A DNA stretch of 14,589 nucleotides from a virus (taxonomy: Duplodnaviria; Heunggongvirae; Uroviricota; Caudoviricetes). Positions within the stretch are counted from its first letter, which is position 1, and each line of letters starts with the position of its first letter. The stretch is from IMG/VR virus record IMGVR_UViG_2609459801_000008; one strand, given 5' to 3'. The notes beneath the pieces are model-generated. The model was not told where the DNA came from. It saw nothing but the letters and a program-made list of their open reading frames with translations, and made no database searches. A program made the position numbers and the translations under genes. Positions 1 to 7,227 of this stretch are shown in pieces.

Positions 1-1
1 T

Positions 2-316
2 GACAGGCTCCGGAAGACGGTTGTTGCGCACGTATTCGGTGAACGCACTATGGCGACGCTGGGGCGTCTTATGAGCCTGCTGTCACCCTTTGACGTGGTG
101 ATATGGATGACGGATGGCTGGCCGCTGTATGAATCCCGCCTGAAGGGAAAGCTGCACGTAATCAGCAAGCGATATACGCAGCGAATTGAGCGGCATAACC
201 TGAATCTGAGGCAGCACCTGGCACGGCTGGGACGGAAGTCGCTGTCGTTCTCAAAATCGGTGGAGCTGCATGACAAAGTCATCGGGCATTATCTGAACAT
301 AAAACACTATCAATAA
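2..316 (+). CDS. insB: IS1 transposase InsB, C-terminal portion (5' end outside window)
   Basis: The frame is open from the window edge. The track ORF 50..316 begins at an internal Met; translation from base 2 continues the InsB sequence. Stop TAA at 314-316. Confidence 0.9.
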
Positions 317-331
317 GTTGGAGTCATTACC
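309..331 (+). repeat. IS1 right terminal inverted repeat
   Basis: ATCAATAAGTTGGAGTCATTACC is the reverse complement of the IS1 end GGTAATGACTCCAACTTATTGAT. Junction with phage DNA is at 331/332. Confidence 0.85.
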
Positions 332-2225
332 GTTCACTAGCTCTCTGCTGCTCCCGGGTCTGATATTGTTTTGAAAAGGCATCTGCTCTCTGTCTGAGTT
401 CAATTCCTTCCTGTTGTCGCTTGTTGTAATCGTTTATTGATGAATTTAGTACGTCCTTAGCAATTTTTTCTGCTTGAAGTACGCCCAATTGCTGCTTTAA
501 TCGTGCCAGCCTTTTATTTTGAGCTCCGCCATCTCCAATGCCACCTAACCCGAAAACTCCGGGTCGGGTATTTTTTTCTATTTCATCAATTTGACGGAGA
601 ACATCTGAGATTTTTTGATCAAGGGAGGCCTCACGGCCAATATCCAGCATGGAATCCCATGCCCATTTTGCGGAGTCTGCGACAGCTTTCCATGCAGTCT
701 CAAGATAACCAAGATTTTCTTTAATCTGGTTGGTGCGCTGGATCATTGAGGATGAGTATTCTTCTGTCGCAATGCGGGCGGCCTCCTGCTGGTTCCCTTC
801 ATCCTGTAGCGCCTTAATCTGGTTATAAGTCGCAAGTGTCAGAAAATGGTACTGATCATTAAGTTTTGATATGGCACTGACAGGATCCTTTGCAATTTCA
901 TTGAAGTCATTAACCAGTTGTTCGGTTGATATTCCTGTTACTTCGCTCGTTTTTACTATCGCTGTCGTCACTTGCTCCAGCGAACTGCTCGCTACCTTTC
1001 CCGAACGCACAAGCTGATTTAATACTGCCGCCGCAGCACCAGTTGTCGAATCAGCCGCATTCCCGGCACGTTGAGCTATATCGCCCAATTGCCCGCTGGT
1101 TGTCCCCAACTGATTTCCGGTAAGAATAAGAGATTTATTAAATTCGTCCTGCTCCTGAGAGCCTTTATAGTAAGCCAGTCCTAAGACCCCAACGGCTGCT
1201 GCGGCCAGGGTAAAAGGATTAATTAATCCCAGCACATAAGAACCTACACCTTTGATCGCCGGGCCAATCCCACCGAACATATCTTTTAGCTGGCCGCCCT
1301 GCTGCATTAACACCATAAATGGCGACTGACCAGTGGACAACCCAACAACAATATCCGTCATTTGTGCAGGCAACATGCGCATAGCAAAAGCCGTTTGTTT
1401 TGCCGACATTCCGGTTTTGCTTAATTGTGATTGAGTAACCTCAAGCTCACTCCGCATAGCACGAAGTTTTCCAGAAAGCTCCTCATACATTTCAGGAGAA
1501 AGCATCCCCTTAGCTTTTGCTTCATTGAGCTGTTTCTGTTGTTCTACCAGACGATTAAAAGCAGTTCCGACAGGATCAAGTTGAGCAATCAGACGTTGCA
1601 AAGCAACAACCTGTTCATCATGCGCTTTTGCTGCTTCTCGCTCTGCCTGAGCCTCTCCGGTAAGCTCTCGCCGTGTTTCCTGTATTTTTCGGCTATAATT
1701 CTCAAACTGAGAACCATTTATTTTCCCGGATGCAAACGCAGCATTAAGTTCATCATGCTGTTGTTCAAGATTTCTTAGCGCCGCAGCCAGAGGGTCGATC
1801 TTGTCCAGCATTCTTTGAAAGGCCTGAGCCTGCGCTTCCTGCTGGGCGGCAGCAAGTTTTCCGGCCTTCTCGGCTTCTCTCTGCGCTTGCGCAACCCCGC
1901 TCAATTCCTCTGTGGTTTCATTAAGTTTACGGACAAGAAATTCATATTCTTCTTTATCAATAAGCCCTTTATCGAAAAATTTCTTTAATTCAGAATAGCG
2001 TCGACCGACAGTATCAATTGCGGCACCAACTGGATCAATAGCTGCTTTTAATTTTGCGAGCGCGTTCTTCTCATCTTCTGTTGCCTTAGTCACTTTCCCT
2101 GCGCTATTTGCAGCAGTTTCCCCAGCCTGCGTCATTTTGACTAATGAGGAGGTCAGATTGTCAGCATTATTTTTCGCTCCAGTGCTATCAATAATTATTG
2201 CGAGACGCGAGGTTTGCTCTGCCAT
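327..2225 (-). CDS. Phage tail tape measure protein, 3'-truncated by the IS1 insertion (probably non-functional)
   Basis: 632-aa ORF with ATG at 2225 and SD AGGAG 7 nt upstream. N-terminal half has three ~48-aa coiled-coil repeats ([20 protein letters not shown]… / [20 protein letters not shown]… / [20 protein letters not shown]…) and a Gly-rich hydrophobic segment ([36 protein letters not shown]), both typical of lambda-family tape measure proteins. It follows the chaperone pair. The frame runs to the IS1 boundary and stops inside IS1 (327-329). Confidence 0.85.
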
Positions 2226-2240
2226 TTATTAAAACTCCTG

Positions 2241-2270
2241 ACAACAAAAAACCCACCGCGAAGTGGGTTT
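2241..2270 (-). terminator. Candidate intrinsic terminator just upstream of the tape measure start
   Basis: Minus strand reads AAACCCAC-TTCGCG-GTGGGTTTTTTGTTGT: a stem with a 5-bp GC core, 6-nt loop and U-run. It lies between the chaperone stop (2391) and the tape measure RBS. Confidence 0.45.
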
Positions 2271-2390
2271 CAGGCGACATAATAGTAGATATAGCGATTA
2301 CGAGGCCACGCAATGCTTTTCTCCAGGAGCATCATCGATTTAATTAAAGACACCATCACATCTCTGTAACAGAGTGTACGTAATTAACAA

Positions 2391-3160
2391 CTACACACAC
2401 TGCTCCTGAAAATACTGGTCATCCAGTGCAAAGATCACTGCTTCAAATTCATCGCGCTCAATCAATACCGGATGAGTGGCTAAATATTCATTTATCTCTG
2501 TCAGAGATAAAGGCAAAGGCACCCCAGCCATTCCAGCATAACGTCGGGCACGGGATATTACCGAATAGGCGTACAACAACTCCTTAAGCACCGGGTCTAT
2601 TTCTGGTTCCGGTATCGGTGGCAACCTGAGTTTTTCTCGCTTCCATCTTGCCTTTTCCCCCCTTTCTCCCCCGAACTCCGATAACCACCGCTGGGCAGCT
2701 ATGGCTTTTTTATCGTATCCTGCTTCTGCTGCTCTTTACCCTGGGCGATGCTGGCTGCTTCTGCAAGGATCTGCCAGTACAACTCTGGATTCTGCTTAAG
2801 CAGCGCGATCCCTCGTTCTGCCGTATATTCCAGTGCAACCTCAACACCATTAACCAGTTCACCAACCCCTTTCCAGTCTTTCAGCAGATAACGAGCGGCA
2901 TTATCAATGAGTAAATCATCAACAGAATCCACCTCGGAAACCTTTGAAATATCAAACTCCTTCGTTCCGACGTGCAAACTGGCATCCATTTTCTCAATGT
3001 GGCGACGGATTAATGCATTACGGGAGCGATACTGATCGTTATCGCTGCTTGCCACCAACAGTTTTAACCCGTCTACAGGTTTTAAGTCCTTCATTGGCGT
3101 AAACCAGCGTTCTCCACCAATGATAATTTTCTGATTAAGAATAAACATCCATAACCTCAT
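2391..3160 (-). CDS. Tail assembly chaperone fusion (lambda GT-like) made by programmed -1 frameshift at A_AAA_AAG
   Basis: The -1 frame is open from the slippery site through the track's 77-aa ORF (2391..2624, which starts on TTG and is not an independent gene). Hand translation after the slip gives …KKAIAAQRWLSEFGGERGEKARWKREKLRLPPIPEPEIDPVLKELL… with no stop until 2391. Confidence 0.6.
2699..3160 (-). CDS. Tail assembly chaperone (lambda G-like), zero-frame product
   Basis: 153-aa ORF, ATG at 3160 with SD GGGGGA 8 nt upstream. Sits between major tail protein and tape measure genes. Ends …DTIKKP* with the slippery heptamer in its last codons. Confidence 0.7.
   Translation of the reverse strand: MRLWMFILNQKIIIGGERWFTPMKDLKPVDGLKLLVASSDNDQYRSRNALIRRHIEKMDASLHVGTKEFDISKVSEVDSVDDLLIDNAARYLLKDWKGVGELVNGVEVALEYTAERGIALLKQNPELYWQILAEAASIAQGKEQQKQDTIKKP
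2705..2711 (-). other. Programmed -1 ribosomal frameshift slippery heptamer A_AAA_AAG
   Basis: Minus strand reads GAT ACG ATA AAA AAG CCA TAG. A AAA AAG is the same heptamer used by E. coli dnaX, placed 2 codons before the G stop, matching the conserved G/GT arrangement of long-tailed phages. Confidence 0.6.
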
Positions 3161-3208
3161 TCAATGCGTCCCCCTGTAGGGCAGTACCACAGGAGGAATA
3201 ACGGAAAA

Positions 3209-4171
3209 TCAACTAATCGCCTCAGCACTGGCTTTTGCGATCACGGCAGCCGGGGAATTTTTTTTTCTGGTTATCGTAGGTGCTTCATCTGCTGCGGTAA
3301 TGCTCAATTGAACCTGGATAATGTCGCTATTACCCCCATCAGGCCATTCACCTGACACCTGAACCTTCGGGAAACTGAAAGTGTATGCCCCCTCTCCATT
3401 CGAAAGCGTGAAGCTGAACGGAACTGTTTCTCCAGTCAGTGTTTTACTCCAGATTTCCCACGCGGCTTTAGACCATGAAAGCGTCACCGTACCGGACGGT
3501 GTAAAAGTAGTCGGAATATTTGCTCCTGCATAAGGCGAGCCAGTCCCGATACAACGCTGTGTCTGGAGTTTGTTATCGAACTGAATATCAAAACTGTCGA
3601 TACAAAAACCGTTACCTCCGGCAACACCATTCAGGCTTACTGCTGAAACCTCCTTAAACGAATAACGTAGCTTTCCTGCACTATCCACAGGTTCGCCTTT
3701 GATAAAATTCGTATCATCGGCCTTTGATTCCCAGTCCAGTCCGGCAAAGGTTACGGTCGCTGTAATATCGCCGTCGTTAGGGATCTGCATTTTCCATGAG
3801 CCAACCTGCGCTCCTCTGACGACAGAGGCAATTCCGACATCGGACGCATAGGTCGCCAGAGAAAATGTTATTCGCTCATTCCCCATTGTCAGAGAATCGC
3901 CTGACCATTCCGCGCCGAAACAGGATGCAAGAAAATCATCATGTTGACCCCAGCGAAATTTGGTACCAACATCACCGCCGACATCCACAGTGCCAGGCGT
4001 CGCCCCCTGAGCCATCCGGGAGCCACCAATCTCATTATTTTCGCCTTTATTCTGGGTGGGTTTTACTCCCCAGCTTGTGCGTTTTAATAAACTCCAGTCA
4101 CCACTTGCTGGCGTAGTGCCTGCAACCGTCTCCCGGATAAATGCCGAGATAACCTTTGCACCTGAACTCAC
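3209..4171 (-). CDS. Major tail (tube) protein, assigned by position
   Basis: 320-aa ORF directly upstream of the G/GT pair and tape measure gene. GTG start at 4171 with a strong SD (AGGAGG, 5-nt spacer) and an in-frame stop 4 codons upstream. Gly/Ser/Thr-rich, beta-rich composition. No motif-level identification. Confidence 0.6.
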   Translation of the reverse strand: MSSGAKVISAFIRETVAGTTPASGDWSLLKRTSWGVKPTQNKGENNEIGGSRMAQGATPGTVDVGGDVGTKFRWGQHDDFLASCFGAEWSGDSLTMGNERITFSLATYASDVGIASVVRGAQVGSWKMQIPNDGDITATVTFAGLDWESKADDTNFIKGEPVDSAGKLRYSFKEVSAVSLNGVAGGNGFCIDSFDIQFDNKLQTQRCIGTGSPYAGANIPTTFTPSGTVTLSWSKAAWEIWSKTLTGETVPFSFTLSNGEGAYTFSFPKVQVSGEWPDGGNSDIIQVQLSITAADEAPTITRKKNSPAAVIAKASAEAIS

Positions 4172-4197
4172 AGGAGCCTCCTATGTCATTAATTGCG

Positions 4198-4590
4198 CTA
4201 GAGCGCGCGATATGGAATTTGAAGATTAAGCTGGAACCAGCCATTCTTTTCGCCAACGGATATTGAGGAAACAGCCTGGTAACTGAGACGATCGTCATCC
4301 TGAAACTCAAACAGTTCCCGCAATTTATCGGCTGTCTCAGTAATGAGTTTTGAACCAGAACCTGCGGGGACAAATAACTGAATAATGATTATCCCCGTGC
4401 GATAAACAATCGGCCCCGCGCCAATTTCATTAACTCCAGCCTGCCCGGGAATATTACTTAACCGCGCCCAGATTAACTTACCGGAAGGATCGAACGTTGG
4501 CGCGTTCGGATACAATACGTCTTTTCCATCAATAATCGTCTGTGCCGTCATTCTGGAAATAACCGTATTTCTGATTTCAGTAAACGTCAT
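4198..4590 (-). CDS. Tail terminator / tail completion-like protein (positional)
   Basis: 130-aa ORF. Its ATG overlaps the upstream stop (ATGA) and it lies immediately before the major tail gene. Confidence 0.45.
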   Translation of the reverse strand: MTFTEIRNTVISRMTAQTIIDGKDVLYPNAPTFDPSGKLIWARLSNIPGQAGVNEIGAGPIVYRTGIIIIQLFVPAGSGSKLITETADKLRELFEFQDDDRLSYQAVSSISVGEKNGWFQLNLQIPYRAL

Positions 4591-4967
4591 TTGTAAGCCT
4601 GTAAAACACCATGAAAAGCGTTGGCATACACGCCAGTTGGCGCTTGTTGTGAATGACCGTTTTCAAGAGCCTCTGCATAAGGAAGGTTATTCTGGATATA
4701 AATAACTCCGTAATTTGCAGCTTTCGAAATAACCCCGATCCCACGCTGAACAGCAATCGTACCGTTCGGATCCACGTTATCAGATATACCAAAATCGGGA
4801 TGCTGTAACGACACCAGGTTGTTATTTCTGAAACGTCCGGTATCAACCGGAGCAGCAATATCAATAGCAGTAAGAATCTGAATAGCGATGTAGCGAATCT
4901 TCAGCCCTACATCTTCCTCAATCATCCCGGCAAATATTGACGGTTCTATATCCCATGCCTTTGCCAT
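4587..4967 (-). CDS. HK97 gp10-like neck / tail-component protein
   Basis: 126 aa containing …PVDTGRFRNNNL… and …NNLPYAEALENG…, which resemble the conserved motifs of the HK97 gp10 family. Translationally coupled to its neighbours. Confidence 0.55.
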   Translation of the reverse strand: MAKAWDIEPSIFAGMIEEDVGLKIRYIAIQILTAIDIAAPVDTGRFRNNNLVSLQHPDFGISDNVDPNGTIAVQRGIGVISKAANYGVIYIQNNLPYAEALENGHSQQAPTGVYANAFHGVLQAYK

Positions 4968-5351
4968 TTACGCTCTCCTTAACTGGATAGAGTAAACTGA
5001 TGCGGAAGGATCTACACTTGCTGTAATTACCTCGTATCGTTGTAACTGCCTTGATACAGGATCATAAATCTCAATAATATGGTCGACAGCTGGTTTATCC
5101 GTAACCTCGCATACCAGAGCGGTTAATTTAAGGTCACCATGCAAAATATTAATCCCATCAATTCTGCCCAGCTTATAACGTGTCAACACGCCTCGCCCGG
5201 TATAGATTGCGGTGGATTCGCCGCCAGTTTCCGTCACAGGATCCCAGTGCCGGTGCGTAACGTAAGAACCAGAAAAATCACTCACGGCGTCCGCTAAATC
5301 CTCATCAAAAGCAGCGGCAACCTCTGACTGAATCTCTTCACGAAGCCCCAT
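4968..5351 (-). CDS. Head-tail adaptor / joining protein (positional)
   Basis: 127-aa ORF inside the tightly packed connector gene block, with TAATG overlap to the upstream gene. Confidence 0.4.
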   Translation of the reverse strand: MGLREEIQSEVAAAFDEDLADAVSDFSGSYVTHRHWDPVTETGGESTAIYTGRGVLTRYKLGRIDGINILHGDLKLTALVCEVTDKPAVDHIIEIYDPVSRQLQRYEVITASVDPSASVYSIQLRRA

Positions 5352-5746
5352 TATCCCCCCCTCACAACCCTGACTTGTGAGCGACTAAGTCCGTACGGTT
5401 TCAGCAGTGCTATCGCAAGCTGTAAATCGGGTTCAAGCAATGCAGTGCTGTTTGCTGGCAACTCAGAAAATGATTTCGATACACTGACCCCGTCAGCCGA
5501 CACGGCTTTACTGATAACAACGCCAGAATCATTTTTCTGCTGAAACAACTTACCGAATGAGGCAATTCTGGCTGCATATGCTCCCGCAAGTTTTACCTCT
5601 TCCGGAATACGGGATGGGTTAATTTTCAGGTTGAAGCCATTAAGCCAGGCATTAGCCATTAAAACAGCTTTATTTTTAGCGTTCTCACTCGTCCAGGCGT
5701 TCCCAAACGCATTATCAACGTCATCACAGGTCACGTAAGTGATCAT
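5351..5746 (-). CDS. gp6-like head-tail connector protein (tentative)
   Basis: 131-aa ORF, first gene of the connector block. N-terminal pattern (MITYVTCDDVDNAFG…KAVLMANAWL) resembles gp6-type connector proteins. Start overlaps the upstream gene by 23 nt. Confidence 0.4.
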   Translation of the reverse strand: MITYVTCDDVDNAFGNAWTSENAKNKAVLMANAWLNGFNLKINPSRIPEEVKLAGAYAARIASFGKLFQQKNDSGVVISKAVSADGVSVSKSFSELPANSTALLEPDLQLAIALLKPYGLSRSQVRVVRGG

Positions 5747-6443
5747 GTGTTCCGGAATCCAGATACAGCTCGGTCATTCCGCCGCTGTTTTTCTGCGTCT
5801 GTTTCTGCCCTAACTGGACAGCACCGATCGTCATAAACAATTCACCACAGCGACCGAGATTCGTGTACGTATTCACATCCTCGTTAATGCGCCCCATGAA
5901 TGAGAACGGTCGATCAACCGAACAGATAAAGCTGTTCATTGCCTTGCGTTTCACCCACGAAGCATGGCCGCCATTGTCACCAAGAAAATCCCCGCCCTGC
6001 GACATAGCGATGGAAAGAGCAGGTATTGATTCGTAGTACGCCAGCATTTCAGAAAGGATCGCATCCAGTTTCCTTATCGGAAAATAGGCCTGGTCATAGT
6101 TGCGATCCACCCGAAACTGGAACTCGTGATAATCATCATCGAGCTGAATGAAGTATTTACACCCGACCAGTTTTGCCAGGTCGAAACAGGCATTACGGGC
6201 GTAAAAAATTGAGCGGCGGTCACAGAAATTATCGGCTTCGTCAAAACGACTGGCGATATCGGCTTTGGAAAACACCAGCACCTGTTCACCAAATTCAGCC
6301 ATGTACTGATTCCGTGTCTTATCTTCATCATCAACAACGATAAAAATTTTCCCGGTATAGCCAGCACGACGCAACGTCCGGTAAGTCAGAACTTTGTCCG
6401 GTCGCCCGTGAGTCAGAATAAAGGCGCAAAAATCATCACGCAT
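5724..6443 (-). CDS. Hypothetical enzyme-like protein with paired acidic motifs (possible nucleotide-sugar or nucleotidyl transferase fold; function unknown)
   Basis: Track ORF is 5724..6464 (246 aa). I prefer the ATG at 6443 (239 aa, MRDDFCAFILTHGRPDK…) because it has a strong SD (GAGGAGGAGG) and overlaps the ParB-like stop as ATGCGTGA. Alternating hydrophobic strands plus IVVDDED and QLDDDY clusters suggest a Rossmann-like DXD enzyme. Inference only. Confidence 0.5.
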   Translation of the reverse strand: MRDDFCAFILTHGRPDKVLTYRTLRRAGYTGKIFIVVDDEDKTRNQYMAEFGEQVLVFSKADIASRFDEADNFCDRRSIFYARNACFDLAKLVGCKYFIQLDDDYHEFQFRVDRNYDQAYFPIRKLDAILSEMLAYYESIPALSIAMSQGGDFLGDNGGHASWVKRKAMNSFICSVDRPFSFMGRINEDVNTYTNLGRCGELFMTIGAVQLGQKQTQKNSGGMTELYLDSGTHDHLRDL

Positions 6444-7227
6444 ATTCCTCCTCCTCACCACCATGCATGATCTCCACCATGCGCTGCGTCATCCGGACAA
6501 ATCCATTTTCAATAGCCTGCTGATAATCAATGATCACCAGCGCCGACTCCTCGAAAAAACACTGAATTTCAGAGGGGGCGTGAGCGTAATAGTCCGCAAT
6601 TCTGCTGAAATTAAACACCGTGTGACGTTCTGCCGCACACAGGAGGAATTTCTCAATATCAGGCTCAAGGGACGCCGAACGTATCCGGCTGATCAGCTCC
6701 TGAGTTTTCGTATCGTCGTACAGTTCACTGATATCCGGTTTACCGCCCGACGGCTCATAAACAGGCGTATCAATTTTCGTCGTATACGGCTCCTCCTCAT
6801 TTCCTGTACCGGGCAAAACATCCGTCAACAGTTCATCAATTTCTGTCGGGATGAAGCCTGTCAGGGAGACATCAAAATCAGCATTGATTAGGTCCGACAG
6901 GTCCATCCGCAACAGATCTTCATCCCAGCCAGCATTCATCGGCAGGCGATTATCTGCCAGGCGGTACGCCTTTTTCTGCTCATCCGTCAGGCCAGACAGA
7001 ACAATGACCGGAACAGAATCCATTTTGAGCATTTCAGCCGCCATAACACGACCGTGACCCGCAATAATTTCGCCCTTTTCGTCAATCAGCACCGGATTAG
7101 TCCAGCCGAATTGCTTAATACTTTCTACCAGTTGTGCCACCTGCTCAGGGCTGTGCGTCCTGGCGTTGTGCGCATACGGTGACAATTCTTGTAATGGGCG
7201 ATAGACTATCTTTAATTTCTCGCTCAT
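6436..7227 (-). CDS. ynaK: ParB-like nuclease (ParB/Srx N-terminal domain) protein, Rac ynaK-like by synteny
   Basis: 263 aa. N-terminal region has ParB-N features (…VLIDEKGEIIAGHGRVMAA…, a GxxR box), and the C-terminus is an acidic tail (GGEEEEYA). It lies immediately downstream of trkG, as ynaK does in the Rac prophage. ATG at 7227. Confidence 0.7.
   Translation of the reverse strand: MSEKLKIVYRPLQELSPYAHNARTHSPEQVAQLVESIKQFGWTNPVLIDEKGEIIAGHGRVMAAEMLKMDSVPVIVLSGLTDEQKKAYRLADNRLPMNAGWDEDLLRMDLSDLINADFDVSLTGFIPTEIDELLTDVLPGTGNEEEPYTTKIDTPVYEPSGGKPDISELYDDTKTQELISRIRSASLEPDIEKFLLCAAERHTVFNFSRIADYYAHAPSEIQCFFEESALVIIDYQQAIENGFVRMTQRMVEIMHGGEEEEYA

Follow-up and report, generated by a model that had tools for sequence, protein, structure and literature searches.

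An IS1 end abuts a truncated tail tape measure gene in a Rac-type Escherichia coli prophage lacking its head module

Introduction

Among the described systems close to the DNA reported here is the Rac prophage of Escherichia coli K-12, which retains just a fragment of its own tape measure gene (tmpR/ynaA) and carries an IS5 in lomR. Intact relatives of the tape measure gene are found in the prophages of E. coli SE11 and MB10, where the gene is 3,234 nt long and encodes a protein of 1077 aa, the functional analogue of lambda gpH. The proteins of these two strains differ at a single position (Q590K in MB10 relative to SE11), and in both prophages the gene is followed by minor tail genes (M-like, L, K-like C40 peptidase, and I-like) and by genes for the tip protein J, Lom, the Stf tail fiber, and the Tfa assembly protein. 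The insertion sequence IS1 normally inserts as a simple transposition with a 9-bp duplication of the target, and it prefers AT-rich targets. A literature search on the Rac prophage, the tape measure gene, and IS1 found nothing specific.

Here we describe a whole draft contig of 14,589 nt (the window), which ends inside IS1 and has nothing to its left. It contains the same kind of element as K-12 Rac, with trkG inside the prophage, ydaY, a ParB-like ynaK, and an Rz lysis gene, but its lesions differ from those of K-12 and are independent of them: IS1 at tape measure nt 1894, and a 7.6-kb deletion in the head region. We conclude with high confidence that an IS1 right end lies at nt 1894 of the tape measure gene of a Rac-family E. 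coli prophage already without its head module, leaving a 632-aa fragment that retains the TMP_2 domain.

Results

A Rac-type late region in lambdoid order

Between 14196 and 327 on the minus strand, the window has a late region with the gene order of a lambdoid prophage. RusA, antiterminator Q, and a set of cargo genes are followed by an S21-type holin, lysozyme, Rz, and trkG (TrkH family), then by a gene for a ParB_N protein, a gene resembling TAGT-family glycosyltransferases, three head-tail connector genes, and finally the tail terminator, tail tube, YdaY, a 77-aa chaperone-like ORF, and the tape measure gene. The lambdoid late-gene order together with trkG and ydaY identifies the element as Rac-type, and the annotations of near-identical prophages include trkG, ynaK, and ydaY. 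Over positions 332-5751 the window is identical (5420/5420) to the Rac-type lambdoid prophage of E. coli MB10 (NZ_CP073988.1, 3,048,233-3,078,301). The window itself is without chromosomal flank; in the relative TW01221, the equivalent prophage end is at the Rac locus, where it adjoins pinR'-ydfK-uspF-ompN. Scanning the window against Rfam returned no match.

The tail tube, tail terminator, and three head-tail connector genes (3209-5746, minus strand; PF18906, PF13554) are intact and 100% identical to those of MB10. YdaY (153 aa; PF27119, Phage_YdaY) and the 77-aa ORF separate the tail tube gene from the tape measure gene (2391-3160, minus strand), a position equivalent to that of lambda G/GT. 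The two probably constitute a tail assembly chaperone pair; the Phage_TAC_18 match of the 77-aa ORF is weak (E 3e-4, below the Pfam cut-off).

Several other genes in the window are of incidental interest. The cargo genes between Q and the lysis cassette (10321-13078) include those for an AraC-type regulator (195 aa) and a DUF523/DUF1722 protein (319 aa) that is 2-thiouracil desulfurase-like, as well as a Blc-like lipocalin (174 aa) encoded on the plus strand, opposite to the other cargo genes. A sister contig (L003) has a 56-aa ORF with an AraC HTH called in place of the 195-aa regulator, which is a gene-calling difference, since this contig is 100% identical to the window. The ParB_N protein (263 aa) and then the TAGT-family gene ('GREB1-related') are encoded at 5724-7227 on the minus strand; this ParB_N/TAGT pair (TAGT, TET-associated glycosyltransferase) sits between trkG and the former terminase genes, and may be involved in DNA modification or anti-restriction.

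The IS1 end and its junction with prophage DNA

The first 331 nt of the window correspond to the last 331 nt of a 768-nt IS1A copy of E. coli TW01221, with 330/331 identical and the sole mismatch at window position 7. This IS1A-like 3' part (1-331, plus strand) shares with IS1 of the IS1A/IS1B type in E. coli and Shigella both the right inverted repeat, which ends at 331, and the C-terminal frame of InsB, whose stop codon is at 314-316. The ORF at 50-316 (plus strand) is the C-terminal part of InsB (PF03400, DDE_Tnp_IS1), the PF03400 match having come from sister contig L003, where this ORF is partial. The canonical IS1 right end, ...AAGTTGGAGTCATTACC, was located and ends at window position 331; the terminal inverted repeat, ...CACTATCAATAAGTTGGAGTCATTACC, stops at this same base and prophage DNA begins at 332. 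With 43% of the element visible, some 437 nt of IS1 lie off the contig, including the left end, insA, and the target duplication.

Comparison with intact alleles defines the junction from the prophage side. The sequence ...TTTTGCAA/GTTCACTAG... of these alleles corresponds to ...CATTACC/GTTCACTAG... in the window, such that the break falls exactly at 331/332, and BLAST matches of the window to intact alleles begin at 332. The identities of the two partners and the exact junction are thus observed directly. An earlier reading, made from the sequence only, had assigned bases 1-331 to IS1 and placed the junction at 331/332; the near-perfect IS1 match with its right terminal repeat at 331 bears out the assignment, and the intact alleles bear out the position. 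The 9 bp beside the IS1 end (GTTCACTAG, 332-340) are nt 1886-1894 of the tape measure gene and would be one copy of the target duplication if IS1 had arrived by simple insertion.

The truncated tape measure gene

On the minus strand, the tape measure ORF extends from 2225 to 327 and consists of 632 codons plus a stop: tape measure codons 1-631, a hybrid Arg codon (332-330), and TAA (329-327). The hybrid codon, CGG, takes its first base (332) from the gene and the other two (331-330) from IS1, and the TAA is formed by IS1 bases 3-5 counted from the end of the element. The start codon is kept, together with a ribosome-binding site (AGGAG). Pfam TMP_2 matches residues 267-471 with full profile coverage (E 5.3e-82, 275 bits), and the ORF is colinear with the intact 1077-aa proteins. 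The window retains gene nt 1-1894 of 3234, and over residues 1-631 there is no difference from the MB10 protein. Missing from the product are residues 632-1077, or 41% of the protein, and with them the TMP_4 (671-748) and Tape_meas_lam_C (858-932) domains, whose absence marks the product as less than full length. RefSeq contains an identical protein, WP_032266395.1, named 'phage tail length tape measure family protein, partial'. When compared to WP_089617074.1 (MB10) and WP_000840618.1 (SE11), the window has the same upstream genes (tube, YdaY, and the small chaperone-like ORF), but there are no distal tail genes after the tape measure gene; IS1 and the contig end stand there instead.

The truncation is therefore directly observed, and the sequence-only reading was correct here as well. 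It had called this a tape measure gene, as the TMP_2 match and the colinearity confirm; its description of a 632-codon frame running up to IS1 and stopping a few bases inside agrees with the TAA at 329-327; and its proposal of a truncated protein is sustained by the comparison of 632 with 1077 aa. The comparison with IS1-free alleles that it had suggested, run on SE11 and MB10, gave the intact 1077-aa gene.

We also observed a terminator-like hairpin at 2248-2271 on the minus strand, with 10 pairs (GAAACCCAC-TTCG-CGGTGGGTTTT) followed by a T run. It precedes the tape measure start codon by 22 nt and lies immediately ahead of the AGGAG site. This is an odd position for a terminator within a tail operon, and the hairpin might attenuate tape measure expression or stabilize the upstream mRNA.

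A second lesion removes the head module

Alignment with the SE11 prophage (L001) reveals a 7.6-kb deletion in the window. Positions 332-5751 correspond to L001 12001-17420 and positions 5749-6763 to L001 25055-26069, so that the deletion junction is at 5749-5751, where the two sides share a 3-bp GTT microhomology. The missing interval contains, in SE11, the 3' part of the TAGT-like gene, a 69-aa ORF, and the genes for both terminase subunits and the portal (DUF4055), and further the minor head protein gene, a scaffold-like DUF6651 gene, the major capsid gene, and a 58-aa ORF. What is left of the TAGT-like gene is an ORF of 246 aa directly upstream of the first head-tail connector gene (context 5351-6464). 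All sister contigs long enough to show the deletion have it too (L003-L005), and its junction is found in none of 5,426 complete E. coli genomes (0/5,426).

This second deletion, likewise directly observed, has consequences for how the first lesion is viewed. Because the head and packaging module is gone, the prophage is unable to build heads whatever the state of its tail genes, and truncation of the tape measure gene alone does not decide particle production. Both lesions are recent, given that the flanking 5.4 kb is base-for-base identical to the intact MB10 prophage. The head deletion, the 41% protein loss, and the recurrence of IS events described below are points that go beyond the sequence-only reading.

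Other lesions in the same gene

At least six different IS1 sites are present in the tape measure gene in other strains (positions in this section are in nt of the tape measure gene unless a contig is named). Three of these alleles have unrelated DNA on the other side of IS1. In LR-48, IS1 abuts nt 1936 and the other side is mcrBC DNA, indicating a rearrangement (L011 5275-6042); in TW01221, it abuts nt 2082 with pinR' on the other side, a deletion (L002 5564-6331); and in PSS-13, IS1 also abuts nt 2082 and is joined to lom', again a deletion (L012 5275-8800). A second IS1 in PSS-13 abuts nt 99, with a terminase large-subunit gene fragment on its other side, and the tape measure fragment at nt 99-2082 in this strain is bracketed by two inverted IS1 copies. 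Other IS1 alleles are simple insertions, namely that of T28R, with a 9-bp duplication at 313-321, and that of EC2, where a divergent IS1 variant has a 9-bp duplication (TTATCTGCT) at 2639-2647. A further set of contigs (L016-L023), referred to here as the +188 allele, has IS1 at nt 2082 and includes a left junction with the 9-bp duplication GCTGAGTTG, from which it follows that the nt 2082 allele began as a simple insertion.

Lesions of other kinds, beyond which the gene continues, include an IS5 at CTAG 1886-1889 (OW1E2-type), an IS3-family element at 815-819 (contig L025), and a frameshift at nt 2064 (contig L014). We note that the IS5 in CP067245 and CP054371 (L026/L027, about 1690-2860) has a 4-bp CTAG target that falls inside the putative 9-bp target of the window (1886-1894), and IS5 and IS1 thus used overlapping targets in different strains. 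The window allele belongs with these others as the same class of event in the same gene, but its junction at nt 1894 is an event of its own; and relative to the IS1 copies in other strains, it shares the truncation, with the adjacent deletions and rearrangements being seen in those strains.

The four independent junctions at 1886-1889 (IS5) and at 1894, 1936, and 2082 (IS1) fall within 200 nt of a 3.2-kb gene, a clustering at nt 1886-2082 that is partly an artefact of how the alleles were found. The local G+C content near the site is about 40%, below that of most of the rest of the gene (200-nt windows), which fits the preference of IS1 for AT-rich targets. We consider it quite doubtful that nt 1886-2082 is a true IS1/IS5 hot spot, and that IS knockout of the Rac-type tail module might be recurrently favored in IS1-rich E. 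coli as opposed to reflecting neutral decay.

Distribution of the junction

The same product of 632 aa recurs on no fewer than 20 independent contigs from NCBI, ENA, and Logan, all of which break inside IS1; the longest of them, at 14,589 nt, is the window. The sources are two NCBI assemblies (protein accessions KDU33510.1 and KDZ78319.1), one ENA metagenome assembly, and several Logan runs. The length of IS1 included on a junction contig ranges from 28 to 386 nt, with 331 in the window and 386 in JNMT01000076.1. The window IS1 junction is present in none of the 5,426 complete E. coli genomes (0/5,426). Three apparent full-coverage matches among these genomes were rejected, as each is made up of two pieces aligning to a different IS1 junction, located 42 or 188 nt further along.

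Discussion

The simplest objection to the junction is that it is an assembly chimera, in which a contig was wrongly extended into a repeated IS1 copy, and it is true that the window is a draft contig ending in a multi-copy repeat. However, the same junction is recovered by different assemblers from different samples, and the break coincides exactly with the final base of the IS1 inverted repeat. Recurrence of an identical junction across independent assemblies effectively rules out a chimera. It is hardly more credible that the 632-aa fragment is a retained and functional (domesticated) protein and not debris. The start codon, the ribosome-binding site, and a complete TMP_2 domain are preserved, and the upstream tail tube, terminator, and connector genes are intact; yet the end point of the fragment is dictated by a stop codon in IS1, and no particular length is preserved, as IS1, IS5, IS3, and frameshift lesions occur at many other points of the gene elsewhere. 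Moreover, the element is without capsid, portal, and terminase genes, and the absence of any substitution between it and MB10 leaves no time in which selection could have acted. The 632-aa product is most likely a piece of a family member that is without function.

For the DNA beyond IS1, the sequence-only reading had allowed for either displacement or deletion of the genes that normally follow. We think it probable that, instead of simply inserting, IS1 brought about the deletion of the 3' portion of the gene and of the distal tail genes, or their transfer to another place. A simple IS1 transposition, with a 9-bp duplication of GTTCACTAG and with the 3' 1,340 nt and all of the distal tail genes intact across IS1 on another contig, appears rather unlikely, even though it does not want for precedent: clean 9-bp duplications are seen within the tape measure gene in EC2, in T28R, and in the +188 allele, and draft assemblies always break at IS1, so contigs missing the left side are to be expected. 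The evidence against it comes from predicted left-junction products, 0/15 of which are found in a protein collection where the right-junction product is there on 13-20 contigs. These predictions use an IS1 left-end frame that is open into the gene under a 9-bp duplication (...TKSVSWQHHP-SELAKLEK...), the IS1 left end (GGTGATGCTGCC...) being expected to join ...GCAAGTTCACTAG under simple insertion; the 15 variants carry between 16 and 78 nt of IS1 and assume duplications of 6, 8, 9, 11, or 12 bp at the target. All 15 exact full-length look-ups, run against a collection of 15 billion proteins and with no positive control, came back absent. An exact look-up is blind to left-junction contigs that end before the stop codon of the gene, and also to those where the gene caller picked an internal ATG, giving a non-diagnostic 401-aa product (89 contigs in the collection). 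Nonetheless, this gene caller regularly predicts genes that are cut off by the edge of a Logan contig (L005-L010), and the MB10 C-terminal sequence is the same as that used for the predictions, making an allele mismatch unlikely; because the right-junction product is present, edge-truncated genes are called, and the C-terminal allele matches MB10, the negative result has some weight. The absence of the 15 products leans weakly to deletion or rearrangement. At the tape measure gene in other strains, IS1 does border unrelated DNA (pinR', lom', or mcrBC).

Two further checks concerned the left side of IS1. Pattern scans for the left junction, permitting duplications of 0-14 bp, found no occurrence in JGI metagenome contigs and GTDB representatives, and the right-junction control was also zero; since the right junction is likewise absent from these collections, the scan negatives carry no weight. 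The 401-aa and 384-aa internal-start products were considered as the left junction of the window and rejected, as they come from other alleles: left junctions of IS1 in the +188 allele (L016-L023), IS5 and IS3 insertions, frameshifts, and plain contig ends. Derivation of the window allele from the +188 allele by an adjacent deletion of 188 nt is unsupported, and no sample is common to the two listed sets of contigs.

Taken together, an IS1 right end lies against nt 1894 of the 3,234-nt tape measure gene, probably with loss or relocation of what followed. Translation of the gene reads a single hybrid codon and then the TAA of the IS1 terminal repeat. A separate 7.6-kb deletion has stripped the head and packaging module, leaving a decaying remnant.

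For annotation, the 632-aa ORF is best labeled a pseudogene fragment, in line with the 'partial' that RefSeq already applies, and the prophage is to be scored as defective, with its head module absent and its tail ruler broken. The locus is a clean example of how IS1 produces contig ends and truncated ORFs in draft assemblies, with little import beyond annotation. Biologically, it is an unremarkable case of decay through an insertion sequence in a Rac-type prophage that was defective already. A by-product of the comparisons is a catalogue of many independent IS1, IS5, and IS3 events in one E. coli prophage gene, and in some of the strains IS1 then acted as an end point for deletion or rearrangement.
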